Shown: positions 6,340 to 64,000 of the stretch, piece after piece
Layout of the letters: every line of letters starts with the position of its first letter
How positions within the stretch are numbered: position 1 is the stretch's first letter
Assembly: GCA_028694425.1 (NCBI GenBank)
Contig: JAQVKX010000001.1
Coordinates: 841 to 64,840, forward strand
DNA length: 64,000 nt
Direction of reading: 5' to 3'
DNA from: Candidatus Gastranaerophilales bacterium
GTDB lineage: Bacteria; Cyanobacteriota; Vampirovibrionia; Gastranaerophilales; Gastranaerophilaceae
Made by a program: the position numbers and the translations under genes
The notes under the pieces: generated by a model
Databases searched by the model: none
Seen by the model: only the letters and a program-made list of their open reading frames with translations
Told to the model about the DNA's origin: nothing

Positions 6340-6600
6340 AAGGCAAAAAGCAAAAAGTGAAGCGTGAAGCGTGAAGGGAAAAAGGGAATAGGGAACAGAA
6401 AAGAAGACAAGATGCGTAGATGCGTAGAGGCGTAGCCGAGTGACGAAGCAATCCAAGGAGCTAAAAGCAAAAAGTAAAATGTGAAATGTGAAAAGAAGTT
6501 GAACAGTCGAATAGTTGAAAAGTTTAATTAAGTGAGGCGTGAGGCGTGAAGCGAAAAGCTTGCCTTCCTGCCCTCTTGCCCTCTTGCCTTCTTTTCACAT
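6340..6600. repeat. SWR cluster (large; contains core GAAGACAAGATGCGTAGATGCGTAGAGGCGTAG at 6403-6435)
   Basis: AAAAGC, GTGAAGC, GGGAAnA, GCGTAG, GTGAAAT, GTTGAAnAG, GTGAGGC and CTTGCC(C/T)TC words, each iterated 2-4 times. Confidence 0.9.
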
Positions 6601-6601
6601 T

Positions 6602-7288
6602 TTATCCCTTTTTCCATTTTTTATATAAGTCTTTTCTGCGAAGTTTAGTTCTTTCCAAGCTTTGTTCATGGCGATGTTTAGCAATTTGGGCATGATTTCC
6701 GTTTAACAAAACCTCAGGAACTTCAAACCCCCTAAAATTCCTCGGCTTTGTATACTGCGGATATTCTAAAAGTCCGTTAGAGAAACTGTCTTCATTGGCA
6801 GATTCTATTTTACCTAAAGTTCCTTCAATTTTTCGGCTTACGCTGTCAATTATACAAAGTGCAGGCAACTCCCCACCCGTCATTACAAAATCTCCGATAG
6901 AAACCTCTTTGGGCTTAATAATATCTCTTATTCTCGCGTCATGTCCTTCGTAATGTCCGCAAATCATTATTATTTGGTTATATTTTGCAAATTCATTACA
7001 CATTTTATCGTTAAAAACTTCACCTTGCGGAGTTAACATTACTGTAAGGGAATTTTCAAGTTGTTCCACACTTTCGTATGCATCAACATAAGGCTGTGCC
7101 ATTAAAACCATACCGGCACCACCACCATAGGACGTATCATCAACTTTTTTATGCTTATCAAGGCTAAAATTCCTTGGGTTTATAGTGTTAACTTCAATGA
7201 CGTTGTTTTCAACCGCACGTTTTAAAATACTGCAACCACAGCAACTGTCAATCATTTCCGGAAATAGTGTTAAAACATCAAATTGCAT
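6602..7288 (-). CDS. trmD: tRNA (guanine37-N1)-methyltransferase
   Basis: MQFDVLTLFPEM, GGGAGMV, ICGHYEG.D.R and GDFVMTGGELPA motifs. Confidence 0.95.
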   Translation of the reverse strand: MQFDVLTLFPEMIDSCCGCSILKRAVENNVIEVNTINPRNFSLDKHKKVDDTSYGGGAGMVLMAQPYVDAYESVEQLENSLTVMLTPQGEVFNDKMCNEFAKYNQIIMICGHYEGHDARIRDIIKPKEVSIGDFVMTGGELPALCIIDSVSRKIEGTLGKIESANEDSFSNGLLEYPQYTKPRNFRGFEVPEVLLNGNHAQIAKHRHEQSLERTKLRRKDLYKKWKKG

Positions 7289-7817: not shown

Positions 7818-9107
7818 TTACTCTTCAGTTTCTTTAGCAGTTTTTTTACTTTTTGCTTTTGGCTTTTCGCTTTTTGCTTCTTTAGTTTCTTTTTCTTCTT
7901 TGGTTTTTTTAGCTTTTTTAGGTTCAGCTTCTTTAGCGTCTTTTTGCTTTTTGAATTCTTCAGGGGCATCTGCTCTTTCCTGATTCCATCTTTCAAGACC
8001 TAATTTGCCCCTTATAAGCCCGATACCTACGTGGACTCTCCATTCATCTATTTTTAATTGAGCCGCAATAATTTTGTGGCAACCTATCGGAGGTAAAGGA
8101 AGCAACGGTTCGTATAAATTTTGTATTGCAAACATCTGATCCGGTGAAATAGCCAATTTTCTTTTAGGGAAAGGTAATTTGGGAAGCAGCATTTTTTGTC
8201 TGATTAAGTTGATACCAAAGAAAACTTTTCTTGGCTCTAATCCGATTTTTGTGCCGATTACTTCATGTGCATCAGGATTTGGCAATGGTAACATTGTTTT
8301 GTATATTAATTCAATTTGTTCCAATTGCTCTTTACTTACTAAAAGCGGCTTATTAATACGGTTTCCTTGCGGTCTTCCGCCGCCTCTGTTAAAGCCGCCG
8401 CTTGAAGGTCTGTTATATCCGCCTTGCGGTCTGTTATAGCCACCCTGTTGCGGTCTATTGTAGCCTCCTTGTTGCGAACGCTGATATCCGCTCCTGTCTT
8501 GGTTGTAACCACCGCCTTGCGGTCTGCTGTAACCGCCCTGTTGCGGACGCTGATACCCGCCTTGTTGCGGTCTGTTATATCCACCCTGTTGCGGACGTTG
8601 ATATCCGCTCCTGTCTTGGTTGTAACCACTGCCTTGCGGTCTATTGTATCCGCCTTGTTGCGGACGTTGATAACCACCTCTATCTTGGTTGTAACCGCCC
8701 TGTTGCGGTCTGTTGTATCCGCCTTGTTGCGGACGTTGATATCCGCCCCTGTCTTGGTTGTAACCGCCCTGTTGGGGTCTGTTATATCCGCCTTGTTGCG
8801 GACGTTGATATCCGCCCCTATCTTGGTTATAAGGTCTTTGCTGAGGAGCTTCGGCAGAATAACTATTATAGAATTGCTGTTGCGAAGGTTGTTGCCCGGA
8901 TCCTTCGTTTTGTTCTTTTTGTTGACCGCCACCCGAATGATTTTCTTGTTGAAATTCTTGATTAGAATCTTCAGCTTCTCTTTCTAAATCTAAATCAGCC
9001 GATAATGCCATTTTTTTATCAGGATAAAGACAATTAGGACAAATAACTCTTTTGGGGTTTTTGGTTTCAAACTCTGAACCACACTTTGTGCACTTGTTTA
9101 CATACAT
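7818..9107 (-). CDS. zinc-ribbon protein with Q/G/Y/N/R-rich tandem repeats, duplicated C-terminal module and K/E-rich tail
   Basis: CTKCG...CPNC zinc ribbon; about 158 aa of GGY(N/Q)RPQQ repeats; two ~55-aa related modules (LPLPNPDAHEVIGTKIGL... / LPLPPIGCHKIIAAQLKI...); stop codon 3 nt from the rimM start. Confidence 0.7.
   Translation of the reverse strand: MYVNKCTKCGSEFETKNPKRVICPNCLYPDKKMALSADLDLEREAEDSNQEFQQENHSGGGQQKEQNEGSGQQPSQQQFYNSYSAEAPQQRPYNQDRGGYQRPQQGGYNRPQQGGYNQDRGGYQRPQQGGYNRPQQGGYNQDRGGYQRPQQGGYNRPQGSGYNQDRSGYQRPQQGGYNRPQQGGYQRPQQGGYSRPQGGGYNQDRSGYQRSQQGGYNRPQQGGYNRPQGGYNRPSSGGFNRGGGRPQGNRINKPLLVSKEQLEQIELIYKTMLPLPNPDAHEVIGTKIGLEPRKVFFGINLIRQKMLLPKLPFPKRKLAISPDQMFAIQNLYEPLLPLPPIGCHKIIAAQLKIDEWRVHVGIGLIRGKLGLERWNQERADAPEEFKKQKDAKEAEPKKAKKTKEEKETKEAKSEKPKAKSKKTAKETEE
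8364..8837 (-). repeat. in-frame coding tandem repeat, about 66-nt (22-aa) period
   Basis: about five copies of YNQDRGGYQRPQQGGYNRPQQGG; the DNA shows the same periodicity (CCGCCTTGTTGCGGACGTTGATATCCGC...). Confidence 0.9.
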
Positions 9108-10839: not shown

Positions 10840-10856
10840 GATGAAATTATAGCAGA

Positions 10857-11082
10857 AAAGTAAATAGTGAATAGTGAATGGTGAATGGGAAACAGAAAAG
10901 AAGACAAGATGCGTAGAGGCGTAGAGGCGTGGAGTAAAATACTAAAAAACTTTTCAACTCTTCAGTCTTTCAACTTTTTACCTTATAAACAAAAGCATTT
11001 TTTATTTAAAAACTACGCATCTACGCATCTTGTCTTCTTGTCATCTCTCTAATTCTTTTCCCCTTTACCTTTTCCCTCTTTA
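10857..11082. repeat. SWR cluster with two core copies in opposite orientation
   Basis: GAAGACAAGATGCGTAGAGGCGTAGAGGCGTGGAG at 10900-10934 and CTACGCATCTACGCATCTTGTCTTC at 11013-11037. Confidence 0.9.
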
Positions 11083-11595
11083 AGCCGTTTTTATTGTGGG
11101 CTGGACAAATATTCTTGCCGCTAAATCCTTATCAAGCAAGTAAAGAGCACTCTTATCATCACCGATTAATTTTAGTTTAGAGATAATATCCTGTGCGTTA
11201 GCTTCTTCTTCGACTTGTTCATCCACAAACCAGTTCATATAAGACATTGTAGCTCTGTCTTTTACTTCTTCCGCAATTGTTACAATGTTATTAATCAAGC
11301 TTGTCACATAAATTTCATGCTTAAGAACTTCTTCCATAACATTAAGCGGATTTTTCCAACGGTTAGGCGGTGCATCAATCGGAGTTAAAATAACTCTTTC
11401 ACCCCTGTCAATCAAAAAGTCATATATAAGCATTGCATGAGCCGTTTCTTCTTGTGCTTGAACTCTCATCCAGTTTGCAAAACCAAGCAAACCCAAATCA
11501 GAAAAGTAAGCGGACATTGACAAATACAAATATGCCGAATATAATTCCTTATTTACCTGTTCAATAAGAATTTTTCCTACTTTTTCATTAATCAT
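11080..11595 (-). CDS. ftn: non-heme ferritin
   Basis: NKELYSAYLYLSMSAYF and QAQEETAHAM ferroxidase-site pattern. Confidence 0.9.
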   Translation of the reverse strand: MINEKVGKILIEQVNKELYSAYLYLSMSAYFSDLGLLGFANWMRVQAQEETAHAMLIYDFLIDRGERVILTPIDAPPNRWKNPLNVMEEVLKHEIYVTSLINNIVTIAEEVKDRATMSYMNWFVDEQVEEEANAQDIISKLKLIGDDKSALYLLDKDLAARIFVQPTIKTA

Positions 11596-12667: not shown

Positions 12668-12786
12668 ATAAATGGAAAATGGAAAATTCTTTAGGTCTCT
12701 TAAAAACTACGCCTCTACGCCTCCACGCATCTTGTCTTCTTTCCTGTTCCCCATTCACTATTCACTATTTCCCATTACACTATCCC
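12668..12786. repeat. SWR cluster (core in reverse at 12707-12739)
   Basis: AAATGGAAAATGGAAAA; CTACGCCTCTACGCCTCCACGCATCTTGTCTTC; CCATTCACTATTCACTATTTCCC. Confidence 0.9.
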
Positions 12787-13410: not shown

Positions 13411-13726
13411 GAGCATAGTATACGAGCATGCGGAAAAAGTCCCATTTTGACAAAAGCGGATTGCGAGCGGAGGCTGAAGGGCAAAACCACGCTTTTGCCC
13501 GAAATGCCGTTTAACGCGAGCAACCAAGGAGACTTTTTTGCATGCGACCTAAGAAGTGTGAAAGCCTTGCCGGCTGCGGGATAGCGAATTTTCGCCGGAG
13601 GGCGAAAGGGCAAAACGACGCTTTTGCCCATAGCCCGTTCAACGGCGAATAATTCAAGAAGCCGGCGGCAAGGCTTGAAACCGGACATCAGAGTTTACAG
13701 GAAAAAGGAATTTTTTCCGTAAACTC
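13411..13726. repeat. nested-palindrome element (NPE), long copy
   Basis: shares both ends and a central hairpin with 38692-38847; contains two extra GGGCAAAAC(C/G)ACGCTTTTGCCC hairpins; ends in GAGTTTACAGGAAAAAGGAATTTTTTCCGTAAACTC. Confidence 0.85.
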
Positions 13727-13794
13727 ATACAAATAAAAAAGATTGCCCATGATTTTTTGGACAATCTCTTTTAATTATTTGCTTACTTTATCTA

Positions 13795-17292: not shown

Positions 17293-17400
17293 AAGGTGAA
17301 TGGATGAAAAGCTATATTTTTTACCTGTTACATTTTGCTTTTTGCCTTTCGCCTTTCACCTTTTGCCTTTTGCCTTTTGTTTTGGCTTTTGACTGTTTCC
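17293..17400. repeat. SWR cluster overlapping the rel 3' end
   Basis: GGTGAATGGATGAAAAG; TTTTGCTTTTTGCCTTTCGCCTTTCACCTTTTGCCTTTTGCCTTTTG. Confidence 0.85.
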
Positions 17401-19551: not shown

Positions 19552-19566
19552 GGTATAATTATAGCA

Positions 19567-19636
19567 GGTAAATGGTGAAAAGTGAATAGTGAATGGTAAA
19601 TGGTGAAAAGTGAAAGGTGAAATGTGAAACGTGAAG
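19567..19636. repeat. SWR cluster
   Basis: GGTAAATGGTGAAAAGTGAATAGTGAATGGTAAATGGTGAAAAGTGAAAGGTGAAATGTGAAACGTGAAG. Confidence 0.9.
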
Positions 19637-19941
19637 AAATTTTTAAAAATACGGAAAAAGGTTTGACTGTAAGATTAAAAATAGTCCCTAACTCAAGCAA
19701 AAATGACATCTTCTTTGACGGGGATATTTTAAAAATAAAAATAACAGCTCAACCGATTGAAAATAAAGCCAATAAAGCTTTAGTTGAATTTTTGGCAAAA
19801 AAATTAAAAATCGCAAAAAGTAACATTCAAATAACCAAAGGTGAACTCAGCAAAGAAAAAACCTTATTAATTCAAGGGCTTAACAAAGAAGAGTTTTTTA
19901 AAGTGATTAATTATTTAGGTGAACAGGTGAATGGTGAATAG
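19624..19941 (+). CDS. yggU: DUF167/YggU family protein
   Basis: GLTVRLKIVPNSSKN...ITAQPIENKANKALVEFLAK pattern; the GTG start and the last 7 codons lie in GTGAAnn words. Confidence 0.8.
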   Translation: MKREEIFKNTEKGLTVRLKIVPNSSKNDIFFDGDILKIKITAQPIENKANKALVEFLAKKLKIAKSNIQITKGELSKEKTLLIQGLNKEEFFKVINYLGEQVNGE

Positions 19942-20074
19942 AAGTTGAATGGGTGAAAGGGTGAATGGGTGAACAGTTTCGTTTAAAAACTACGCCTCCA
20001 CGCATCTACGCATCTTGTTTTCTATTCCCTGTTACCTATTTCCCTTCACTTTTTGCTTTTTACTTTTCACTTAA
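19918..20074. repeat. SWR cluster (core in reverse at 19990-20020)
   Basis: GGTGAACAGGTGAATGGTGAATAG...; CTACGCCTCCACGCATCTACGCATCTTGTTTTC; TTCACTTTTTGCTTTTTACTTTTCAC. Confidence 0.9.
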
Positions 20075-21025
20075 TTACGCATGTCCTGCGGTTCCGAGTA
20101 CTTGCATTTTATGTTTAACAAGTTCTTTGACGGCAGTTCTTGCAGGTCCGAGATATTCCCTGGGATCAAACTTGGATGGTTCATTAGAGAAGAATTCTCT
20201 TATTGTTGCCGTCATTGCTAATCTTAAATCTGTATCGATATTAATTTTAGCAACACCGTTTTTAGAGGCATAAGACAGCATATCTTCGGGAACGCCTTGT
20301 GCATCAGGCAAATTGCCACCGTATTTATTGCACTTTTCGACTAAATCTCTCGGAACGGAAGATGAACCATGCAGTACAATCGGATAATCAGGGAAACCTG
20401 CATCAGCCAATGCTTTTTTAATTGTAGCAAGTCTTTCAAAATCAAGTTTTGCTTCGCCTTTAAATTTATAAGCACCATGGCTTGTTCCGATAGCTATAGC
20501 TAAAGAATCACAGCCTGTTTCTTTAACAAATTTTACCGCATCATCAGGATCAGTATAAGTTGCATCTTTAGAATGAACTTTTACATCATCTTCAACCCCT
20601 GCCAGTTTACCGAGTTCAGCTTCAACAGAAACTCCTCTTGCATGTGCATATTCAACAACTTTTTTAGTTAAAGCAATATTTTCTTCAAGCGGGAACCTTG
20701 AGCCGTCAATCATAACCGATGAAAATCCGCCGTCGATACAATCTTTGCAAATCTCAAAATCTGCACCGTGGTCTAAATGTAATGCTATAGGTACTGTTGT
20801 TGTAGCAAGTGCTGCTTCAACAAGTTTTACCAAATAAGTTTGATTAGCGTATTTTCTTGCACCTGCCGAAACCTGTAAAATGATAGGTGAACGGGTTTCT
20901 TCAGCTGCTTCTGCAATAGCCTGAAGTAATTCCATATTATTAACATTATATGCCCCGATTGCGTATTTGCCTTCAAGGGCTTTTTTGAACATTTCGTTTG
21001 TTCCGACTAATTTTCTCTCGCTCAT
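20075..21025 (-). CDS. fba: class II fructose-1,6-bisphosphate aldolase
   Basis: LHLDHG, GTSHGAYKF and HGSSSVP motifs. Confidence 0.93.
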   Translation of the reverse strand: MSERKLVGTNEMFKKALEGKYAIGAYNVNNMELLQAIAEAAEETRSPIILQVSAGARKYANQTYLVKLVEAALATTTVPIALHLDHGADFEICKDCIDGGFSSVMIDGSRFPLEENIALTKKVVEYAHARGVSVEAELGKLAGVEDDVKVHSKDATYTDPDDAVKFVKETGCDSLAIAIGTSHGAYKFKGEAKLDFERLATIKKALADAGFPDYPIVLHGSSSVPRDLVEKCNKYGGNLPDAQGVPEDMLSYASKNGVAKINIDTDLRLAMTATIREFFSNEPSKFDPREYLGPARTAVKELVKHKMQVLGTAGHA

Positions 21026-23770: not shown

Positions 23771-23805
23771 GAGCATGCGGAAAAAGGAACTTTTTCCGTA
23801 AACTC
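23771..23805. repeat. NPE, minimal copy (the two element ends joined)
   Basis: GAGCATGCGGAAAAAGGAACTTTTTCCGTAAACTC. Confidence 0.75.
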
Positions 23806-27217: not shown

Positions 27218-27670
27218 TTATAAAACTTTAAGCTGTTCAACGGGTGTATTTGCATTAAGTTCAATGTATTTAAACATGTTTTGAACAATCCCGGCAGGAA
27301 AATAATAGATATTGTTGCATGGCGTAATTTTTAAAATTGAATTTTTTTCATCAATTTTTACCACACTTGCCAAGAATTCCTTTTTTGCAACAGAAAAAAT
27401 AATATATCCGCTTCTGCTCTGTATTTCCAGTATGTTAAACCTGTTTGCGTTAACACTTGCAAGAGTTAAATAAAAAAGCCTGTCTGAATTGAATTTAAAA
27501 TATTTATAACAATCAGAAAAATCTACCGGCTGAGGCTTGACAGGAGAAGGTTTTGCAACAGAAGGTGCAGGTAAAGTCTGCACTGCGTCGGCTGTGCCGC
27601 AGGCACAGCCGACGCTTAAAAAGCATAAAACAAACAAAGTAAAAAAAAGTTTGCTTTTCCCTTTTTCCAT
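27218..27670 (-). CDS. hypothetical lipoprotein
   Basis: signal peptide with lipobox-like LSVGC. Confidence 0.5.
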   Translation of the reverse strand: MEKGKSKLFFTLFVLCFLSVGCACGTADAVQTLPAPSVAKPSPVKPQPVDFSDCYKYFKFNSDRLFYLTLASVNANRFNILEIQSRSGYIIFSVAKKEFLASVVKIDEKNSILKITPCNNIYYFPAGIVQNMFKYIELNANTPVEQLKVL

Positions 27671-27684
27671 TTCCCTTTTCCCTT

Positions 27685-30675
27685 TTAATTTTCCAGCCAG
27701 GATTTACCGTAGCTTATATCTACAACCAACGGCACCAAAAGCGGCTGATTTAATTCCATTGCCTCAAGAGTAAGTTTTTTAACTATATCCAATTCATCTT
27801 TTTCAACTTCCAAAACCAATTCATCGTGAACCTGCATAATCATTTTTGATTTTAAATTATTTTCTTTTAATTTTTTATCAAGCTCAATCATCGCCATTTT
27901 AATTAAGTCCGCGGCCGTTCCCTGAAGCGGTTGATTAATCGCTGCACGTTCGGCTGCTTCTCTGATTGCAAAATTCGGACTGATTAAATCGTTTTGCAAA
28001 TAACGCTTACGCCCAAACATTGTTTCAACATATCCGTGTTCGTGGGCAAATTTAATTGTATTTTGCATATATTCACGAACTTTCGGATAAGTTGCAAAAT
28101 ACTTTTCAATAAACATTTCTGCTGCAAAAGGAGCTATTCCCAAAGATTTAGCCAGTCCGTATTTACTTTGTCCGTAAACAATCCCGAAATTAACGGCTTT
28201 TGCTTTATATCGCATATCTTTGGTAACACCTTCAACTGGAACTTCAAAAACACTAGCCGCTGTTTTTGAATGAACGTCCTCACCTGAACAAAACGCTTCA
28301 ATTAAATTATCGTCACGGGAAATGTGTGCCATAAGCCGAAGTTCAATCTGAGAATAATCCGCTGACAACAAAAGCTCCTTTTCCTTATCCTGAGGAACAA
28401 ATGCGTGTCTTATTTTATTGCCTTCTTCGGTTCTTATGGGAATATTTTGCAAATTCGGATTTGAAGACGACAAACGTCCTGTGGTTGTAACAGTTTGATT
28501 ATAACTTGTATGAATTCGCCCGTCTTTTTTGCTTATTAATTGCGGCAGGGCATCCGTATAAGTTGATTTAAGCTTTGAATATTGCCTGTGCAAGAGCAAA
28601 TATTCACAAATTTTATGTTCTTTAGCAAGTTCTTCCAGTATTTCCGCACTTGTCGAATAATTTGATTTCCCCCGTTTTTTCTTTGCGGCAATACCTAATC
28701 TGTCAAAAAGCACCTCTCCGACTTGCTTTGGCGAATTGACATTAAACGGAATTCCTGATATTTCAAAGATTTTTTCTTCAAGTTCTGCTATTTTTGAATT
28801 AAACTCTGCAGTAAGTTTATTTAAGTACTCCATATCAACCGAAACGCCGTCATATTCCATTTGTGCCAGTATTATTGCAAGCGGAACTTCAATATCATAA
28901 AGCAGTTTAAGTTCTTTTTCATCAAGGTTATTTTGCCAGAATTTTGTTAATTGCAGCGTTGTATAAGCATCATCACAAGCATAAGCGGCGGCTTCTTCAA
29001 TAGAAACACATTCCATGCTGATTTGATTTTTACCACTGCCAATAAGCTCGGTTATCTCTTGCATAATATGGTTTAAATGCTCGAGTGACTGAGTTTTAAG
29101 CCCATGTTTTCTTGTCGGATCTTTAATATAGCTTGCAAGCATAGTGTCAAAATACACTCCCTGAAGCTTTATTCCGTAATTTTGGAAAATATTATAGTCA
29201 AACTTAGCATTTTGCAGGGTCTTTTTAATATTTTTATCTTCCAGAACAGGTTTTAGCACATCAAGTACTTCTTTAAGTTCGAGCTGTTCGCCGATTTGAT
29301 GGGACAAAGGGATATAGAAGACAAGAGGCGTGGAGGCGTGGAGGCGTGGAGAAATACTATCATTTTGCAACGCATCTACGCATCTTAGCATCTTAGCATC
29401 TTTAAAATCTTCATATGCTACAGATATTCCGACTAACTCCGCTTCCTGAATATTAACGGAAGTCGTTTCCGTATCAAGTGCAAAAAGTTCAACTTTTTTA
29501 AGATTTTCAACCAGTTCTTTTAAATCTTCTTTTGTTGTAATCGTTTTAACCTCAAAACCAAGGTCATCTTTATTTATTTTTTGTTTTACTTCCTGTGCAA
29601 ATAAACCAAGCTGCATTTGGCAGGTAGATTGAATGGGTGTAGGGGTGAAGGGGTGAACAGTTTTTTCTTTAGATATGGCGTCATGCTGAACTTGTTTCAG
29701 CATCTTTCCATCTTGCTCCTGTTGGTTAGATCCTGAAATAAATTCAGGATGACGTATATCTTGTTCGATTTTATTTTTGTTAAAAGAACTCAAAATTCCA
29801 TCAATCCCACGTATAAAACTGTAAAACTGAAGCTTTTTAAGAAATTCCGTAACTTCACTAATATCGGGTAATTCAATGTGTGTATGCTGAAAATCAAAAT
29901 CAATATCAACGTCTTTGACAATAGTAGCAAGCTCTTTGCTCAAAAGTCCTATATCTTTACCGCTGCAAATCTTTTCACGTACTGCATTTTCAGGGATCTC
30001 CGTGCAATGAGCAAACATTTTCTCCATATTCGGATAACGTGAAAGCAATTTTTGGGCGGTTTTTTCGCCTATTCCCCTAATTCCCGGAATATTATCCGAA
30101 GTATCACCCCTCAGCCCTTTGTAGTCTGTTACCTGATTAGGATAAACCCCGAGTTTTTCATAAACTTTATCCCAATTATACTCAATAAGCTCTCCTTTAG
30201 AAGGGATTAAAACTTTTACAAACCCTTCTTTGTCAACCAGTTGAAAAGAATCCTGATCGCCGGTTAAAATCAAAGTTTTATGCCCCAATTTTGTGGCTTT
30301 GTCACAAATTGTTCCGATAACATCATCGGCTTCATAGCCTTCTTTTGTATAAATCGGGATATTGAAAGCCTTTAGACCTTCAAAAATCAGCCCCATCTGG
30401 CTTCTTAAAGTATCCGGCATAGTTTCTCTGTTGGCTTTATATTGGTCGTATTTCTCAACTCTAAAAGTTTTTCTGCCAACATCAAATGCAACCGTTATTG
30501 CATCAGGTTTTATGTCCTGATTTTTAAGGAGGTCAAAAACAGCTTTAAAAAACCCGAAAACCGCCCAAGTAGGTTGGTTATCGGTTGTTTTCATGCCTGT
30601 TCTTTCCAAAGCAAAATATTGCCTGAACGCTAAAGCATGCCCGTCTATTAGAATTAGTGTTTTTTGATTTTCCAT
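27685..30675 (-). CDS. polA: DNA polymerase I (996 aa) carrying two repeat-derived in-frame insertions
   Basis: 5' nuclease N-terminus, 3'-5' exo DTETTS motif, polymerase motifs DYSQIELR, KAVNFGIVYG and QVHDELV. Confidence 0.95.
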   Translation of the reverse strand: MENQKTLILIDGHALAFRQYFALERTGMKTTDNQPTWAVFGFFKAVFDLLKNQDIKPDAITVAFDVGRKTFRVEKYDQYKANRETMPDTLRSQMGLIFEGLKAFNIPIYTKEGYEADDVIGTICDKATKLGHKTLILTGDQDSFQLVDKEGFVKVLIPSKGELIEYNWDKVYEKLGVYPNQVTDYKGLRGDTSDNIPGIRGIGEKTAQKLLSRYPNMEKMFAHCTEIPENAVREKICSGKDIGLLSKELATIVKDVDIDFDFQHTHIELPDISEVTEFLKKLQFYSFIRGIDGILSSFNKNKIEQDIRHPEFISGSNQQEQDGKMLKQVQHDAISKEKTVHPFTPTPIQSTCQMQLGLFAQEVKQKINKDDLGFEVKTITTKEDLKELVENLKKVELFALDTETTSVNIQEAELVGISVAYEDFKDAKMLRCVDALQNDSISPRLHASTPLVFYIPLSHQIGEQLELKEVLDVLKPVLEDKNIKKTLQNAKFDYNIFQNYGIKLQGVYFDTMLASYIKDPTRKHGLKTQSLEHLNHIMQEITELIGSGKNQISMECVSIEEAAAYACDDAYTTLQLTKFWQNNLDEKELKLLYDIEVPLAIILAQMEYDGVSVDMEYLNKLTAEFNSKIAELEEKIFEISGIPFNVNSPKQVGEVLFDRLGIAAKKKRGKSNYSTSAEILEELAKEHKICEYLLLHRQYSKLKSTYTDALPQLISKKDGRIHTSYNQTVTTTGRLSSSNPNLQNIPIRTEEGNKIRHAFVPQDKEKELLLSADYSQIELRLMAHISRDDNLIEAFCSGEDVHSKTAASVFEVPVEGVTKDMRYKAKAVNFGIVYGQSKYGLAKSLGIAPFAAEMFIEKYFATYPKVREYMQNTIKFAHEHGYVETMFGRKRYLQNDLISPNFAIREAAERAAINQPLQGTAADLIKMAMIELDKKLKENNLKSKMIMQVHDELVLEVEKDELDIVKKLTLEAMELNQPLLVPLVVDISYGKSWLEN
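29316..29406. repeat. SWR core copy inside the polA 3'-5' exonuclease domain, in frame
   Basis: GAAGACAAGAGGCGTGGAGGCGTGGAGGCGTGGAGAAATACTA...ACGCATCTACGCATCTTAGCATCTTAGCATC; the left half nearly matches 10900-10945. Confidence 0.85.
29625..29765. repeat. repeat words plus two hairpin modules inside the polA interdomain linker, in frame
   Basis: TGAATGGGTGTAGGGGTGAAGGGGTGAACAG; hairpins GCTGAA-CTTG-TTTCAGC and TCCTGAA-ATAAA-TTCAGGA, each next to (C)ATGACG/CGTCAT. Confidence 0.8.
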
Positions 30676-30693
30676 ATTTTATTTCAAGCCTTC

Positions 30694-30852
30694 CATGTCA
30701 TTGCGAACAGAGACGAAACCTCAACGCGGCAATCCAAAAAAATAATTAAATTTATTAAATCTTTTTGGATTTACCTCTCACCCAAAGGTACATTTAGTAC
30801 CTTTGGGTTCGGCAGAGTGTCGCTCGTTACACTCGCTCCTCGCAATGACATG
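30694..30852. mobile_element. MITE-like non-autonomous element, 159 bp
   Basis: perfect 13-bp terminal inverted repeats CATGTCATTGCGA / TCGCAATGACATG; internal 12-bp-stem hairpin ACCCAAAGGTAC-ATTTA-GTACCTTTGGGT; no transposase in the window. Confidence 0.55.
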
Positions 30853-30947
30853 AAATATTTTACAACAAACACCGTCTTTTATCCTAAAACTTTAACATAC
30901 GTAAAAAATTTACCATCATTAGCCCCATTTATGATAAACTAATAACT

Positions 30948-38687: not shown

Positions 38688-38691
38688 GTTT

Positions 38692-38847
38692 TGAGCATGC
38701 GGAAAAAGTCCAATTTTGACAAAAATTGAGACTTTTCCGTATGCGACCTTAGAAGTGTGAAAACCTTGCCGGCTGCGGGATAGCCGGCGGCAAGGTTTGA
38801 AACCGGACATCAGAGTTTACAGGAAAAAGGAACTTTTTCCGTAAACT
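38692..38847. repeat. NPE, intermediate copy
   Basis: GAGCATGCGGAAAAAGTCCAATTTTGACAAAA...CCTTGCCGGCTGCGGGATAGCCGGCGGCAAGG...GAGTTTACAGGAAAAAGGAACTTTTTCCGTAAACTC. Confidence 0.85.
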
Positions 38848-38852
38848 CTTTT
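38812..38852 (+). terminator. rho-independent terminator of topA, formed by the terminal NPE hairpin
   Basis: 16-bp stem with one bulge, followed by TTTTT. Confidence 0.7.
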
Positions 38853-38854
38853 TA

Positions 38855-50840: not shown

Positions 50841-50893
50841 AAACTTTTAAAGTCCGTATTTTTACGGAATGGAAAATTATTTTAGTATTTTAC

Positions 50894-50950
50894 TCTACGC
50901 ATCTTGCCTTTTATTTCCTATTTCCTTTTACCCTTTACCTTTTTTCTTCC
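50894..50950. repeat. SWR cluster in the thiC 5' region
   Basis: CTCTACGCATCTTGCCTTTTATTTCCTATTTCCTTTTACCCTTTACC. Confidence 0.85.
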
Positions 50951-56852: not shown

Positions 56853-56994
56853 AAATAGTGAATAGTGAATAGTGAATGGTGAATAGAAGTGAAAGGTGAA
56901 AGGAAAAGAATTTTACCTATTCAGAATTTTCCATTTAAAACCTATTTACTATTCACCATTCACCATTCACTATTCACTATTCACTATTCACCTT
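56853..56994. repeat. SWR cluster, clearest inverted pair
   Basis: AATAGTGAATAGTGAATAGTGAATGGTGAATAGAAGTGAAAGGTGAAAGG ... CTATTCACCATTCACCATTCACTATTCACTATTCACTATTCACC. Confidence 0.95.
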
Positions 56995-58030: not shown

Positions 58031-58414
58031 CTAACAATAAGCAAAAATGCAAATCAGCTTAGACCCGAAAAGCAGAATTCCGATGGCTATACTTATGAAG
58101 GTTGCTACCATAACAGCCCCTGCCGCTATGTCTTTTGCCATTCCGACAAGTTTTGAGTACCTGTTGTGAAAAATTGCATCCAACGTAAATTCTATCGCTG
58201 AATTAACCATTTCTGTCATTATTACAATCGCAATTGCAATCAACAACAGACAAAATTCAACCGTATTAAAATGCAGGACAATTCCACTTGAAATTGCAAC
58301 CAGAGCAGCTACAAAGTGGATTCTTATGTTTCTTTCACTCTTTAGTGCTAATCTTATCCCCTTAAAAGAATTTTTGAATGTTCCGGTAAACCCCGGTGCT
58401 TTATACTTCGACAC
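58031..58414 (-). CDS. dgkA: diacylglycerol/undecaprenol kinase family protein
   Basis: FKNSFKGIRLALKSERNIRIH...EMVNSAIE motifs; start placed at the GTG at 58414 with GGAGG 4 nt upstream. The ORF track extends to 58627 through repeat words. Confidence 0.75.
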   Translation of the reverse strand: MSKYKAPGFTGTFKNSFKGIRLALKSERNIRIHFVAALVAISSGIVLHFNTVEFCLLLIAIAIVIMTEMVNSAIEFTLDAIFHNRYSKLVGMAKDIAAGAVMVATFISIAIGILLFGSKLICIFAYC

Positions 58415-58505
58415 TTTTCCTCCGCTAATAAATTTTTTTAAAAGAGTTTTTACTCGGTTGTCTATAGTTGAACGGTTGAAAGGCTTAAAAACCGAATGAT
58501 TGTCA

Positions 58506-58645
58506 GAAGCGTGGAGGCGTAGATGCGTAGAGGCGTAGTTTTCATCCCGCTCTTCTATGCATCTTATCTTCTTGTCCTCTTGTCTTCTCTTTCTTTGCTT
58601 TTTGCTTTTTACCTTTTCACCCTTCATGCTTCACCCTTCACTTTC
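58506..58645. repeat. SWR cluster at the ybeY/dgkA junction
   Basis: GAAGCGTGGAGGCGTAGATGCGTAGAGGCGTAG ... CTATGCATCTTATCTTCTTGTCCTCTTGTCTTCTC ... TTTGCTTTTTGCTTTTTACCTTTTCACCCTTCA. Confidence 0.9.
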
Positions 58646-59190
58646 TGAAGAGCAACTTTTTGAGCACTCACAATAAAAGTATACTCTTCATCTGTTTTAT
58701 GGTCAAATCCAAGTAAATGTAAAATACCATGGGCGATTAAGAAATAAAGCTCTTCTTTGGTTGAATGGGTGAATGGGTGAATAGGTGAACGGTTATTTTG
58801 GATTGCATCTGTTTTCTCTCCCACGTTTTCTGTTCCCTTTTCAAAAACTTTGTCTAAAGAAATAATAATTTCACCTAAATTTATTTCACCGTCGAATACA
58901 AATTTATCTTCACTATCTGCAAAAATTGCAAATGTAATTATGTCAGCCGGATAATCCTTTTGACGATATTCTTTATTAATTTGATGTGTTTTTTCATTGT
59001 CACAGTATAAAATATCAAACGATATACATTTAAAATCAAAATTAAAAAGACATGATGAATTAAAGATATTTTTTTCCTTTAAATAAAAATGAAGTATCTT
59101 TTTTGCAATTTGTATTGCTTTTTTTTCATCAACTGCCAAGTCCTTATGTATATTTTCGGAAAATATATTAATTGTTGTCATTTTTTTCAC
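58624..59190 (-). CDS. ybeY: endoribonuclease YbeY with a repeat-derived internal insertion
   Basis: HGILHLLGFDH zinc motif and DIITFAIF/GEIIISLDKV upstream blocks. Confidence 0.9.
   Translation of the reverse strand: MKKMTTINIFSENIHKDLAVDEKKAIQIAKKILHFYLKEKNIFNSSCLFNFDFKCISFDILYCDNEKTHQINKEYRQKDYPADIITFAIFADSEDKFVFDGEINLGEIIISLDKVFEKGTENVGEKTDAIQNNRSPIHPFTHSTKEELYFLIAHGILHLLGFDHKTDEEYTFIVSAQKVALQKVKGEA
58761..58810. repeat. SWR words inside ybeY, in frame
   Basis: TTGAATGGGTGAATGGGTGAATAGGTGAACGG, translated on the minus strand as RSPIHPFTHST. Confidence 0.8.
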
Positions 59191-61436: not shown

Positions 61437-61620
61437 TTGAAAGGTAAAATGTGAAAGATGAAAGGTGAAAAGAATTAGAGAGATGACAAGAAGACAAGAT
61501 GCGTAGATGCGTAGTTTTTAAAAGTGAAATGCGAAAAGGGAAATTAACAATTCTGTTTACTGTTTACTTTTAAAAACTTATCAACATATAAGCCTATAAA
61601 CTTCTTCTCACCTTTCACTT
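61437..61620. repeat. SWR cluster (core at 61490-61514)
   Basis: GTTGAAAGGTAAAATGTGAAAGATGAAAGGTGAAAAG...GATGACAAGAAGACAAGATGCGTAGATGCGTAGTTTTTAAAAGTGAAATGCGAAAAGGGAAA. Confidence 0.9.
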
Positions 61621-63213
61621 TTTAATATAAGCATAAATTAAATAATCATCGGATTTGTCATAATGAACGGTTTTAATTATTTTAGCATTTTTGTTTAACC
61701 ATAAAATAATCGGTTTCGAATCTCCAAAAGGTAAATAAAACCAATAATATCCTGCTTGCAAATCATTTAAATTGTCTGATATTACGGTTTTATTTTTAAT
61801 TTTATGAAAAGATGAATAATAAGCGTATTCTGTATTTGAATCTTTGTTAACAAAAATTATATCTGTCGATTCCAGATTTTTAACCATAGTTCGCATCATT
61901 TCACGAGGGTGTTCCCACTTCGAAATGTCGCTTGAATAAATAAAGTCATTGATTTTTATAATTTGAGGTACAAACGTAAAAAATGTAAGGAAAAATATAG
62001 CAAATAATTCAATTTTTCTTTTAAACGTTACCGTATCTAAAGGTTTTATCATTATTAACAAAAATATCGGCAATAAAAATAGAACCAGCCTGTCTGTGAA
62101 AGGATATATGTGTAAAAGCGATGCAACAATAAGAAATATAAAACTGATTACAGATATATTTAAAAAATCGGATTTTTCTTTGTAAAAAATATTTATCCCC
62201 CAAATTAACAGGAACAAAGCACAAAGTAGGCATTCCATAGGAAAGAAAAAATATTTTATATTTTCAAACAATAAATATAAGAAAAACAAAGAGTTTAAAT
62301 TTAAGAAATTACCGCTCCAATAATTAACCATAATAGTTCCTGTATAGTTTGGAATCAAATATACTTTCAGATAAATTAACAAACTTAAACCGAAGAAAAA
62401 AGGTAAAAGGTAAAAGATATTTTTCTTAAAAGTGGATAAGTGATTAAAAAGTTGAATAGGTGAATAGGTGAACAGGTGAATGGGTGAATGGTTATATTTT
62501 TTACTATTTGCCATTTGCCATTTATTATTTGCTTTCTCTCTTTCATCTTTCATCTTTCCTGTAGTCTTTTTACTTAAAACAGCTTGCCCTCTTGCCTTCT
62601 TGCCCTCCTGTCCTCTTTTTAATTGTATTGCCTTGAAAACAAGCCCGCCTGCGATGATAAAGACAGAAGTAAATGAAAACCAGGGAAGAACAGCTAAAAT
62701 AATCCCATAAATAACAACTTTTTTTGTATTTAATTTTTCTATGTCCAAATTTATAAAGAATAACAGACAAAGTATTGCAATAAGAACATCGGTGCCGTAC
62801 TGCTTAAATTCAAAAGAATAATCAATCAGTTTTTGATTTATTGCAAACAAAAAAACTGCCCAAAAAACAGTAGATTTAACTTTTAATGTTTGCAGAGCAA
62901 GAAAATAAAAGGCTATAATAGCAGTACATCCCGATAAAAAAGGGATTAACCTTAAAGTAAAATCGGTAAATCCCAGTAATTTAACAGTTAATTTTGTTAT
63001 AACCATAAAAAACGGGGGAGCCATTTGATGAAAAGACAATATTTTAAATAAATCCAGATAGCCTCTATATTTAACATTCCAACCCAAAGCACATTCATCA
63101 TGCCAAAGGGAAGGGTCATAAATTAAACCTTTCAGGCGGAGTAAAATTCCCAAGGATATAATAAGATACAACAAAATATTGTACCAGTGTTTTTTCAATA
63201 CCTCTCTTTTCAT
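61615..63213 (-). CDS. polytopic membrane glycosyltransferase, GT39/ArnT-like, with a repeat-derived ~70-aa insertion
   Basis: N-terminal LRLKGLIYDPSLWHDE pattern typical of PMT_2/GT39-type enzymes; more than 10 TM segments. Confidence 0.6.
   Translation of the reverse strand: MKREVLKKHWYNILLYLIISLGILLRLKGLIYDPSLWHDECALGWNVKYRGYLDLFKILSFHQMAPPFFMVITKLTVKLLGFTDFTLRLIPFLSGCTAIIAFYFLALQTLKVKSTVFWAVFLFAINQKLIDYSFEFKQYGTDVLIAILCLLFFINLDIEKLNTKKVVIYGIILAVLPWFSFTSVFIIAGGLVFKAIQLKRGQEGKKARGQAVLSKKTTGKMKDEREKANNKWQMANSKKYNHSPIHLFTYSPIQLFNHLSTFKKNIFYLLPFFFGLSLLIYLKVYLIPNYTGTIMVNYWSGNFLNLNSLFFLYLLFENIKYFFFPMECLLCALFLLIWGINIFYKEKSDFLNISVISFIFLIVASLLHIYPFTDRLVLFLLPIFLLIMIKPLDTVTFKRKIELFAIFFLTFFTFVPQIIKINDFIYSSDISKWEHPREMMRTMVKNLESTDIIFVNKDSNTEYAYYSSFHKIKNKTVISDNLNDLQAGYYWFYLPFGDSKPIILWLNKNAKIIKTVHYDKSDDYLIYAYIKK
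62400..62620. repeat. SWR cluster inside the GT39-like gene, in frame
   Basis: AGGTAAAAGGTAAAAG, TTGAATAGGTGAATAGGTGAACAGGTGAATGGGTGAATGG, TTTGCCATTTGCCATTT, TTTCATCTTTCATCTTTCC, CTTGCCCTCTTGCCTTCTTGCCCTCCTGTCCTC. Confidence 0.85.
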
Positions 63214-63236: not shown

Positions 63237-64000
63237 TCATTTAATACAACCATAAATTAAATAATTGTTTACGTTATTATTATTAACTATTTTTACAATA
63301 TTTGTTCTGTTCTTTGCCCATTCTATAACGGATTGTGGTGCTCCAAGCATAAGATAAAACCAACAGCAATCACCTTTTTTAAGAGATGCTTCAAGTATAG
63401 CCGTTACATTATCTTTTTTATCCGGATGTGGTTGAATAACCCTGTTTTTAATATTATAAAATGAAGAATAATAAGCGTATTCAGTATCAGATAATCCGTT
63501 TACAAAAATTATATCTGTAGGTTTTAAATCTTTAACCATCATCGCCATCATTTCACGTGCATATTCGCCTTTAGTAATATTTTTTGCCTTGAAAAGAAAA
63601 TAACCTACCCAAACAAATTGTGTCCAAAAAGTTATTGTAATTAAAAATATCATAGCTCCTAATTTAATTTTTTTATCCAACGAAACTAAGTCAAAAGGTT
63701 TTATTATAAATAATATGTATATTGGTATTAAAAACAGTATCACACGTTCACCGAAAGGATATATTTTCAAAAGGGAAGCAAAAATAAGTGACATAAAACT
63801 TAAAATTGCAACATTAAAAAATACAGATTTTTCTTTAATATAAGCCACAATTCCCCAAACAAAAAATATAAAAATAAATAATACATAATTAACAAACGGA
63901 AATAAAAATTTTAAACTTTCAATAACAAGCCGGAAAAAATGAATTGGATTTATGGTTACAAAATATGTTTGCCAGCCTTGAGGCATTGTTGTACCTGTAT
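63237..64000 (-). CDS. paralogue of the GT39-like membrane protein, 5'-truncated by the window edge
   Basis: C-terminal 250 aa align with 61615-63213 (IKEKS.F.N..I.SF..LI.ASLL.IYPF..R..LFL.PI); the frame stays open to position 64000 (..TGTTMPQGW vs YTGTIMVNYW). Confidence 0.6.
   Translation of the reverse strand, partial: TGTTMPQGWQTYFVTINPIHFFRLVIESLKFLFPFVNYVLFIFIFFVWGIVAYIKEKSVFFNVAILSFMSLIFASLLKIYPFGERVILFLIPIYILFIIKPFDLVSLDKKIKLGAMIFLITITFWTQFVWVGYFLFKAKNITKGEYAREMMAMMVKDLKPTDIIFVNGLSDTEYAYYSSFYNIKNRVIQPHPDKKDNVTAILEASLKKGDCCWFYLMLGAPQSVIEWAKNRTNIVKIVNNNNVNNYLIYGCIK

Follow-up and report, generated by a model that had tools for sequence, protein, structure and literature searches.

Selfish palindromic DNA that has spread in frame into essential genes is known chiefly from Rickettsia, with few other well-documented cases. 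The Rickettsia palindromic elements (RPEs; Ogata et al. 2000) have been reviewed (PMC2229807, PMC10969869), and the tandem heptamer arrays (STRR) and small dispersed repeats (SDR) of Nostoc are said to have been described by Elhai et al. 2008, a study cited in PMC3116915 and PMC5861425. To our knowledge, the STRR/SDR literature deals with intergenic DNA of Nostocales, not Melainabacteria, and we know of no systematic in-frame translation of arrays inside housekeeping enzymes in these descriptions. RPEs are fused in frame in 19 genes, and a guanylate kinase (gmk) with an RPE insert retains activity (PMC2229807, PMC10969869). Bacterial MITEs found in genes, such as ERIC, the 107-bp Correia element and YPAL, have an open frame and are fused in frame to host ORFs (PMC2229807). 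REPs and REPINs are short imperfect palindromes that are highly repeated between genes and are mobilised by RAYT transposases (PMC3116915).

We find that the polA gene in our window (the whole 64-kb stretch of DNA that was analysed) contains a segment that is very probably a copy of a dispersed palindromic repeat, non-autonomous and here named the OCT element, lying in frame in a turn of the protein. Rickettsia thereby gains a parallel in a sister lineage of Cyanobacteria, uncultured and known from gut and environment, with a different type of element, namely palindromes made of tandem octamers. New aspects are the host lineage, the construction from octamer arrays and the repeated use of the same sites. 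That the turn is reused by different repeats, that a second site lies in a linker, and that the octamer-array palindrome is not an RPE are points beyond the original prediction.

An in-frame segment in the exonuclease domain of Pol I

The polA frame spans 996 aa with no internal stop (ORF list with translations). Its product matches all Pol I domains in Pfam (5_3_exonuc_N, 5_3_exonuc, DNA_pol_A_exo1 and DNA_pol_A), has Taq and Klenow as PDB matches, and is 100% identical to the NCBI MAG protein "DNA polymerase I [Candidatus Gastranaerophilales bacterium]". The three exonuclease motifs are undamaged despite the insert and align to those of Klenow: Exo I (DxE) as DTET 401-404, Exo II (NxxxD) as QNAKFD 488-493, and Exo III (YxxxD) as YACDD 565-569. 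Their catalytic residues (D401/E403, N489/D493 and Y565/D569, respectively) are without variation in 45 orthologues. The frame is open, as originally claimed. Short repeats are known to cause misassembly and the window comes from a MAG; nevertheless, we give almost no credence to an assembly artefact, in which a collapsed repeat would have been misplaced, or to a decaying polA pseudogene. No domain or catalytic residue is damaged, the insert keeps exactly to the polA frame, which runs on through both flanks, and assemblies made independently from other samples have related inserts at this junction.

The insert lies about 19 residues C-terminal to DTET, in the turn between beta2 and beta3 of the 3'-5' exonuclease domain (AlphaFold model and Klenow alignment). 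Residues 9-53 of this domain align with residues 9-53 of the Klenow chain (end ...LVGLSFAIE), and residues 83-230 with 57-210 (start AAYIPVAH). The turn is 29 residues long here versus 3 in E. coli Klenow, a net gain of 26 aa, in agreement with the short Klenow loop given in the original prediction. The full-length AlphaFold model has a mean pLDDT of 59 (shallow alignment), and only its exonuclease core and insert were used. It places the insert between two confidently modelled strands (414-421 and 451-456), with pLDDT <50 at residues 426-446. The insert would be a solvent-exposed, flexible surface loop. The open frame suggests that it is translated as part of Pol I.

Direct reading of 29316-29406 agrees with the sequence first quoted for the segment, which comprises two inverted arrays of 8-nt units (Table 1). 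The coding strand of the insert region reads LVGISVAYEDFKDAKMLRCVDALQNDSISPRLHASTPLVFYIPLSHQ, and the maximal extent is GAAGAT...GTCTTC end to end. Matches to the spacer core are found as GGAGTAAAATACTA at 10930-10945 and as the reverse complement at 50880-50897. GC content is 0.49 in the insert core versus 0.37 in the entire polA. Of the addition of about 28 aa proposed originally, the in-frame insertion stands, with a small correction to its size. The empty site of the polA lineage L059, with the junction GCTTATGAAAATGGTGATGATATAAAAGCA-TTTTAT, suggests that D-F-K belongs to the native loop, outside an insert proper of 27 codons.

Table 1. Positions in the window of polA, its in-frame repeat segments and the OCT copies.
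Feature	Positions	Strand	Evidence
polA (DNA polymerase I)	27685..30675	minus	ORF list, Pfam, PDB matches, NCBI protein identity
Insert core, 81 nt / 27 codons, DAKMLRCVDALQNDSISPRLHASTPLV	29320..29400	minus	Delimited against empty-site L059 and L016 and insert-bearing L004, L015 and L060
Maximal element extent, 96 nt / 32 codons	29317..29412	minus	GAAGAC terminus to degenerate ATCTTC terminus, read from sequence
Octamer array (GAGGCGTG)x3.4	29325..29351	plus	Tandem Repeats Finder and repeat search; coding strand has CTCCACGC repeats, translated PRLHASTP
Central spacer, core AAATACTA	29352..29371	plus	Core common to intergenic copies
Opposite-arm octamer array (GCATCTTA)x3.9	29372..29402	plus	Tandem Repeats Finder and repeat search; coding strand has AAGATGCT/TAGATGCG units, translated DAKMLRCVDA
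Third repeat-derived polA segment, linker, octamer array CCCCTTCA x3.5, translated HPFTPTPIQ	29630..29657	minus	Tandem Repeats Finder
Second repeat-derived polA segment, linker, double hairpin, translated RHPEFISGS...MLKQVQHD	29680..29753	minus	Sequence; copies in related genomes
Intergenic single arm, GAAGACAAG and 3 octamers	6403..6437	plus	Pattern matches
Full intergenic OCT copy (reference palindrome), between ferritin-like gene and rlmN	10900..11037	plus	Canonical termini GAAGACAAG...CTTGTCTTC present
Intergenic single arm	12705..12739	minus	Pattern matches
Intergenic single arm	19988..20022	minus	Pattern matches
Short complete OCT copy, overlapping the N-terminus of the annotated dgkA ORF	58505..58588	plus	Tandem Repeats Finder and pattern matches
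Intergenic single arm	61490..61516	plus	Pattern matches

OCT copies have the ends GAAGACAAG...CTTGTCTTC and arms of tandem 8-nt units, AGAKGCGT and its complement. The 15-mer GAAGACAAGAKGCGT, with up to 2 mismatches allowed, has 9 matches in the window versus 0.08 expected, and the two-unit pattern GCGTRGAKGCGTRG has 15 versus 0.00. These multicopy matches uphold the claim that the polA segment is a copy of an intergenic repeat. The reference copy measures 138 nt and has terminal inverted repeats GAAGACAAGATGCGTAG...CTACGCATCTTGTCTTC. The left half of the insert (29317-29361), said at the outset to be nearly identical to intergenic 10900-10945, differs from it by 3 mismatches and one gap of 1-2 nt over ~45 aligned nt. 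This identity (~41/45 nt) spans the non-array terminus and the core.

A local, low-complexity slippage expansion of native polA, resembling the intergenic arrays by chance, is very improbable. Unit numbers do vary between copies by slippage, and simple arrays occupy the turn in lineages L002 and L003. However, the polA and intergenic copies have non-repetitive parts in common (the terminus GAAGACAAG, the core GGAG-AAATACTA and arms that are inverted relative to each other), the nearest orthologues have no seed for such an expansion, and chance would give only 0.00-0.08 matches.

The polA copy is a degraded palindrome. Its predicted RNA fold has -23.7 kcal/mol (z -2.0), and that of the intergenic copy (10890-11050) has -49.9 kcal/mol (z -7.9). 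Canonical arms contain one TAG per 8 nt, and because TAG recurs at this interval, three canonical units block all three frames. The polA copies have AAG/TAAG variants in its place, or no more than two TAGs, which are out of frame; in the 29372-29402 arm, TAG/TAA triplets occur out of frame only.

Repeats are abundant throughout the window. Tandem 7-8-nt arrays dominate its intergenic DNA; Tandem Repeats Finder lists 145 rows for the 64 kb. Arrays with periods of 7 and 8 number in the dozens, lie at gene ends and form nested purine-rich/pyrimidine-rich half-palindromes. Repeats also appear to be nested inside other repeats. A census of 11-mers recurring within ORFs returned mostly AT-rich words, with useful pointers only at 58761-58790 and 62356-62557.

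Reuse of the turn and linker among polA orthologues

Repeat-derived segments also occur elsewhere in polA and in other genes. The double-hairpin segment of the polA linker, single-copy within the window, is common to a subset of orthologues and is found intergenically in related genomes (L001 20744-20821 and L003 12952-12978). The neighbouring octamer array matches GGGTGAA-type intergenic arrays of the window. Furthermore, the GT39 membrane glycosyltransferase of the window has an in-frame repeat segment of ~+60 aa (105 aa versus a median of 45 in 120 homologues), and YbeY has one of ~+18 aa (24 residues versus 6 in PDB 1oz9). Such segments split the Klenow and YbeY alignments in two. In practice, they break domain matches and inflate gene lengths in MAG annotation.

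We compared 132 Gastranaerophilaceae polA products, 75-83% identical. Only two blocks vary in length among 120-132 orthologues: the beta2-beta3 turn and the linker between the 5'-nuclease and the exonuclease. Turn lengths lie between 5 and 33 aa (median 18, 120 orthologues), and a structured 18-aa hairpin is kept there in 64 of the 132. The nearest relatives, P0002 and P0004, have short loops without the insert, and the turn is likewise short in distant Gastranaerophilales.

Lineage by lineage, the turn and linker are occupied by translated intergenic repeats, which belong to five or more unrelated families. The turn holds a TCGCAATGAC-type palindrome in L001, a family present intergenically in the window at 30676-30947; a (CTCACCT)n array matching intergenic arrays in L003; and a PNPSP..GEG hairpin in L007. 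From the peptides, we would read EGKRARGLEGK turns as a (AGGGCAAG)n array, like that at 6559-6593 of the window. Peptide motifs of the turn reappear in the linker of other orthologues. Repeated colonisation, swapping and erosion of the turn and linker by several repeat families is the best explanation, and part of this is probably cassette exchange via short-patch recombination between lineages.

OCT itself is found at the identical junction, at the DNA level, in L004, L015 and, in decayed form, L060. These are the few orthologues with a similar peptide, so the observation that would have spoken against the original claim, a homologous segment in orthologues without the repeat, was not made. 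L004 and L015 have extra OCT copies outside polA; the examined L060 stretch has none. The nearest relatives of L004, L015 and L060 each lack OCT. In all, three or four polA lineages, none of them mutual closest relatives, have it at one junction. A single ancestral insertion was not accepted as the sole history, since the carriers' nearest relatives are without the element; one insertion may nonetheless account for the window, L004 and L060 taken together.

Another Gastranaerophilaceae polA allele may instead have donated the loop, repeat included, through short-patch homologous recombination, one old insertion having spread, and we regard this as possible, at less than even probability. The window, L004, L015 and L060 have the same 3' junction (CGCCTCTTGTC-TTCTA), start (GATGC[G/T]AAGATGC) and frame, and a 23-nt downstream patch is identical, synonymous sites included, in the window, L004 and L060. 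In addition, L004 and L001 polA are ~90% identical overall but 45-70% from linker to loop, which is a recombination mosaic. Past the 23-nt patch, however, the window flanks resemble short-loop alleles, not L004; L015 has different flanks, and its nearest relatives have the conserved 18-aa hairpin; and the OCT copies differ in central spacers and unit numbers. The shared junction and patch are explained equally well by one event that was inherited or spread by recombination and by site-specific reinsertion. Recombination would change only how the segment arrived, and a repeat-derived, in-frame insert it would be all the same.

It is unlikely that the peptide has been co-opted and is held by selection, whether for modulation of proofreading, contact with the 5'-nuclease domain or a partner, or protection from an inhibitor. 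The frame is open in at least three lineages, the 18-aa hairpin indicates that extensions at the turn can be stable, and the two variable polA sites may be close in space. Yet carrier peptides vary freely in length, spacer and unit number, the closest relatives have no such peptide or have unrelated repeats, and pLDDT in the insert is low. The likeness among carriers is what a DNA repeat consensus predicts, not what protein constraint predicts.

Mobility, insertion and persistence

No target-site duplication flanks the intergenic copies or the polA insert, and terminal TA was not found either. TAT on both sides of the maximal polA element was rejected as a duplication, TAT being also present at empty sites. 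The scan of 24 window ORFs showed neither a transposase domain nor a RAYT gene. In public collections the family is rare. The exact 23-mer GAAGACAAGAKGCGTRGAKGCGT has 0 matches in 185,579 representative genomes; either the family is narrow or the pattern is too strict. Pattern CAAGATGCGTRGAKGCGT has 42 matches in JGI metagenome contigs, nearly all of them chance matches in unrelated, mostly higher-GC DNA, and the only family-like one is L049. A scan of viral contigs gave 6 matches, all in unrelated contigs, five with one common (GAGGCGTA)n array. A plasmid collection searched with the intergenic element, Rfam at gathering thresholds in the window, and a protein search with a synthetic element translation for in-frame copies elsewhere returned 0 matches or candidates.

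The preferred reading remains insertion of the repeat into polA. An OCT copy would have entered the beta2-beta3 turn and been transcribed and translated with the gene, adding a peptide of ~23-27 residues as a flexible surface excursion. It may have persisted because the turn is structurally permissive, because the surviving copy is open in the sole usable frame, and because its palindrome has decayed and would form only a weak mRNA hairpin. It could be neutral or slightly deleterious selfish DNA, as has been demonstrated for RPEs, and a benefit to the enzyme is not required.

More tentatively, a whole community of short nested repeats, comprising octamer and heptamer arrays and several palindromes, might land again and again at a few structurally permissive protein sites in Gastranaerophilaceae, here the beta2-beta3 turn and the interdomain linker of polA and one loop in the GT39 membrane protein. 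Insertion would be targeted to existing repeats or hairpins, with short-patch cassette exchange afterwards. Such "repeat begets repeat" targeting, as opposed to random positions, has reportedly been proposed for cyanobacterial small dispersed repeats. If true, this clade would join Rickettsia as a second, independent natural system, with far more alleles, in which the birth, swapping and loss of peptide segments from selfish DNA are observable. With more than 100 orthologues and varied repeats at two polA sites, a comparative data set is ready for asking which positions tolerate random peptides, how the frame is kept after insertion, and whether insertion is targeted.

Comparison with known repeat systems

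Like REPs, OCT is a short imperfect palindrome with many intergenic copies. The OCT octamer contains GTAG/GTGG, similar to the conserved REP head, which is of the GTAG type; this likeness may be coincidence. REPs are associated with a RAYT gene, which encodes an IS200/IS605-like Y1 transposase, and are essentially extragenic, whereas OCT also occurs inside polA.

With MITEs, OCT shares small size, non-autonomy, an open frame, in-frame fusion and inverted ends, the terminal inverted repeats being present at 10900-11037. It differs in having no target-site duplication, in a body that is a tandem array and not unique sequence, and in that no cognate insertion sequence was seen in the 24 scanned ORFs.

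The likeness to STRR lies in a host that is sister to Cyanobacteria, in intergenic tandem arrays (of 7-8 nt here, 7 nt in STRR) and in nested repeats. The unit sequences, however, are unlike those of OCT.

RPEs are the closest in behaviour. Both are dispersed palindromes of ~100 nt with inverted ends, located between genes and in frame inside open housekeeping genes, and several genes are hit per genome (here polA at three places, the GT39 protein and YbeY, all conserved and open). The 138-nt reference copy, of a repeat that is multicopy in the window, has the ~105-146 bp length, inverted ends and long stem-loop of an RPE. On the other hand, the polA insert is shorter (81-96 nt versus 105-146 bp), and RPEs are confined to Rickettsia, whereas the OCT host belongs to Gastranaerophilales (class Vampirovibrionia/Melainabacteria). 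OCT arms are tandem 8-nt units of variable number nested in 7-8-nt arrays, which is not described for RPEs, and several unrelated repeat families reuse the same protein sites in polA orthologues. By its host and by the described architecture, OCT falls outside the RPE sequence families. The comparison with RPEs made in the original prediction is apt as to mode of action and is strengthened by the further in-frame cases in the window. The best reading is a tolerated in-frame insertion, RPE-like in its mode of action but outside the RPE family.

An OCT copy in the polA reading frame

The DNA polymerase I gene (polA) carries a segment that the original prediction described as an intergenic repeat translated in frame. 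The sequence is present as quoted, and the frame stays open as a single uninterrupted ORF of 996 amino acids. All four Pol I Pfam domains are matched by this ORF (the N and C parts of the 5'-3' exonuclease, DNA_pol_A_exo1, and DNA_pol_A), as are the Taq and Klenow structures. Its protein sequence is the same as that of an NCBI entry from a MAG labelled Candidatus Gastranaerophilales bacterium. The Gastranaerophilales are an order within the non-photosynthetic sister lineage of Cyanobacteria.

The insert consists of two arrays of 8-nt units, roughly complementary to each other, around a short spacer. It has a GC content of 0.49, vs 0.37 for the host gene, and is a decayed palindrome (fold -23.7 kcal/mol, z -2.0). 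A complete intergenic copy of the OCT element, a dispersed palindromic repeat with arms of tandem 8-nt units, folds at -49.9 kcal/mol (z -7.9). The left half of the insert closely resembles this copy, as had been claimed: about 45 nt align with three mismatches and one small gap, and the AAATACTA core is included, as is the terminus, which is not repetitive. With up to two mismatches, GAAGACAAGAKGCGT occurs 9 times in the window vs 0.08 expected; for the two-unit pattern GCGTRGAKGCGTRG the count is 15 vs 0.00 expected. On sequence grounds, the polA segment is a copy of the dispersed repeat, chance being excluded. No Rfam family was matched anywhere in the window, and no transposase was found among the 24 window ORFs scanned.

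The repeat-built intergenic DNA of the window is an unusual setting. Units of 7-8 nt (GTGAAnn, GGGAAnn, AGGGCAAG, and AGATGCGT) form nested arrays there, rich in purines on one side and in pyrimidines on the other; Tandem Repeats Finder reports 145 rows in 64 kb. The nested arrays resemble concentric shells of one large hairpin, and several overlap the opening or closing codons of genes (e.g., 17333-17391, 7843-7943, and 27654-27686). A further, hairpin-like repeat family is listed in the table.

Repeat features and repeat-bearing genes of the window
Feature	Position	Strand	Sequence, peptide, or remark
polA ORF	27685..30675	minus	996 aa
polA insert	29316-29406		predicted peptides include MLRCVDALQNDSISPR
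Insert, first arm	29325-29351	plus	octamer array (GAGGCGTG)x3.4
Insert, spacer	between the two arms	plus	20 nt
Insert, second arm	29372-29402	plus	octamer array (GCATCTTA)x3.9
polA linker octamer array	29630-29657	coding strand	CCCCTTCA x3.5; encodes HPFTPTPIQ
polA linker double hairpin	29680-29753	minus	CGTCATCCTGAATTTATTTCAGGAT...ATGCTGAAACAAGTTCAGCATGACG; encodes RHPEFISGS...MLKQVQHD
Large palindrome	30676-30947		ends CATGTCATTGCGA...TCGCAATGACATG; between polA and lptC, just upstream of polA
Complete intergenic OCT copy	10900-11037		GAAGACAAG-(ATGCGTAG-type units)-spacer-(CTACGCAT units)-CTTGTCTTC
Short complete OCT copy	58505		
OCT single arms at gene ends	6403, 12705, 19988, 61490		
Intergenic array regions (examples)	6343-6621, 10855-11085, 19566-19635, 19918-20072, 56854-56991, 62398-62617		
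Further repeat family	13424-13455, 13702-13745, 23771-23805, 38690-38727, 38832-38853		GAGCATGCGGAAAAAG...TTTTTCCGTAAACTC; hairpin-like ACGGAAAAAGT/ACTTTTTCCGT
GT39 (PMT_2) membrane glycosyltransferase	61615..63213	minus	repeats ~62398-62617
YbeY endoribonuclease	58624..59190	minus	array (TGGGTGAA)x4 at 58758-58789

The exonuclease turn and its contents among orthologues

The insert occupies the turn between strands two and three of the exonuclease fold. This site lies about 19 residues downstream of the Exo I motif DTET, in line with the predicted position just after it. The short loop stated for E. coli Klenow is also borne out: the window has 29 residues vs 3 in Klenow, with ...LVGISVAYE aligned to ...LVGLSFAIE on one flank and VFYIPLSH to AAYIPVAH on the other. 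In an AlphaFold model that is weak as a whole (mean pLDDT 59), the exonuclease core reaches pLDDT 76-94, strands 414-421 and 451-456 lie on either side of the insert, and pLDDT drops below 50 at residues 426-446. This topology suggests that the insert is exposed on the surface. The window polA has the Exo I, II, and III residues, which are invariant in 45 orthologues.

More distant Gastranaerophilales have short turns in polA. In three of their loci (L010, L011, and L013; 54-58% identity), polA is without the DTET Exo I motif (e.g., VQSAITS, LYDDKKS), unlike the window's clade, which retains all Exo motifs. The proofreading domain of these three polymerases is probably inactive, like that of Taq.

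Among the 120 listed orthologues (75-83% identity, 953-1013 aa), length varies only in two blocks: the linker between the 5'-nuclease and 3'-5' exonuclease domains (query residues 300-353) and the turn (query residues 423-451), which is 5-33 aa long with a median of 18. We counted turn classes over 132 sequences, comprising these 120 and 12 from representative genomes. A conserved 18-aa hairpin (LYSAKSEVKI..EKTKT) is found in 64, a short turn of at most 8 aa, as in E. coli, in 34, and other inserts in 30; the remaining 4 are of the OCT type.

The other inserts are recognisable as repeat translations. The turn of relative L001 (P0006) reads FGLPRRADGTPRND, from a TCGCAATGAC-type long palindrome of the same family as the large palindrome just upstream of the window polA. 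That of L003 reads LTSHLSPLT, from a (CTCACCT)n array matching intergenic arrays in L002 and L003, and that of L007 reads PNPSPLKGEG, from a GC-rich hairpin. We read the EGKRARGLEGK turn peptides, from the peptide alone, as translations of (AGGGCAAG)n, a unit that also makes the window intergenic array 6559-6593. Turn peptide motifs reappear in the linker of other orthologues, and, for several loci, DNA from the loop and the linker matches non-polA DNA of related loci, which is intergenic where checked.

The OCT-type inserts all sit at one junction. Between conserved A(Y/F) and FY(I/V)P, the window encodes EDFK-DAKMLRCVDALQNDSISPRLHASTPLV, L004 encodes NINE-DAKMRRGVEKELRNPASTPLV, and L015 (P0007) encodes EQETE-DAKMQRCEDALQFASTPLRIHASTPLA; L060 (P0106) has a decayed half copy. 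All four share the DNA end CGCCTCTTG(T/C)(C/T)|TT(C/T)TA, and the three full copies start with GATGC(G/T)AAGATGC in the same frame. Spacers and unit numbers vary between copies.

The OCT carriers are not mutual closest relatives. Short loops are found in the nearest relatives of the window, and P0007 is nearest to alleles with the conserved hairpin. Outside the variable blocks, L004 is 96% identical to L001, which carries the unrelated TCGCAATGAC-type element. Their polA DNA is about 90% identical, but only 45-70% from the linker to the turn (alignment columns ~825-1425). This drop marks a recombination mosaic and indicates recombinational replacement of exactly the repeat-carrying segment. 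A 23-nt identical patch directly downstream of the insert is common to the window, L004, and L060, and these three may go back to one old event followed by many replacements. Our own reading is that OCT entered polA in at least two acquisitions, with some further spread by short-patch recombination.

Open frames and other in-frame repeats

In canonical purine-rich OCT arms a TAG recurs with every 8-nt unit, so a run of three units is enough to block all three frames; each frame of the intergenic arm at 6403 contains a single stop. No frame of the pyrimidine-rich strand is blocked. Of the six frames of the complete intergenic copy, a single one is open (EDKMRRGVEA...YASTHLVF), and polA uses this same frame. 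In the purine-rich arm of the polA copies, there are AAG or TAAG variants, or else no more than two TAGs, which lie out of frame. Within an essential gene, readable variants alone would survive, which would leave the stop-poor copies seen in polA.

Repeat segments lie in frame elsewhere as well. The linker double hairpin is unique in the window and common to a subset of orthologues, with intergenic copies in L001 (20744-20821) and L003 (12952-12978), and the linker array shares its unit family with intergenic GGGTGAA-type arrays. A loop of the GT39 glycosyltransferase has 105 residues, whereas the median across 120 homologues is 45. The ~60 extra residues are translated intergenic-type arrays, KRGQEGKKARGQ...SPIHLFTYSPIQLF, and this loop contains an OCT-like peptide in one homologue (P0148). 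YbeY has 24 residues vs 6 in Aquifex YbeY (PDB 1oz9); the extra residues include SPIHPFTHS, from the (TGGGTGAA)x4 array, directly before the HGxLHLxGxDH motif, and the Pfam match is split into two.

The Pfam match of the class II fructose-bisphosphate aldolase (20075-21025, minus strand) falls in two stretches, the best being 9-236 vs profile 3-223 of 277, and this may reflect another inserted segment. The longest diacylglycerol kinase ORF (58031-58627, minus strand) starts inside an OCT composite (58505-58641) with the N-terminus MKGEKVKSKKQRKRRQEDKKIRCIEERDENYASTHLRLHAS. Since its Pfam domain begins only at residue 86 and no later internal ATG is present, the gene may in fact start at GTG or TTG; alternatively, translation may include the repeat. 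The ORF at 63237-63986, adjoining the GT39 gene, resembles the GT39 C-terminal half and may be a paralogue. A 429-aa ORF (7818-9107, minus strand), without a Pfam match, has internal repeats at 8385-8832 with periods of 24, 69, 93, and 117 nt and matches of up to 86%; its product is probably a repeat protein of low complexity.

Comparison with known repeat systems

The polA segment is best explained as a non-autonomous palindromic repeat that inserted in frame at a permissive surface turn and is tolerated there. The original observation is confirmed, and its interpretation as a repeat tolerated as a loop in polA, comparable to Rickettsia palindromic elements (RPE), is supported. In-frame repeat insertion is already known as a general phenomenon. 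A search for Melainabacteria repeats returned nothing relevant; as far as could be found, the new aspects are the lineage, an element built of octamer arrays, and the way in which several repeat families have repeatedly come to use the same sites in a protein.

The window's 7-8-nt intergenic arrays call to mind the short tandemly repeated repetitive (STRR) sequences of cyanobacteria. No target-site duplication of the kind that marks MITEs was found for the OCT element. Set against REP/RAYT elements, its octamer unit contains GTAG/GTGG, and no RAYT gene was seen among the 24 ORFs scanned. Its polA insert has the same mode of working as RPE; in-frame fusions of RPE occur in 19 genes, and a guanylate kinase bearing an insert is active (PMC2229807; PMC10969869). 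OCT is nevertheless not a member of the RPE family, because organism and architecture differ.
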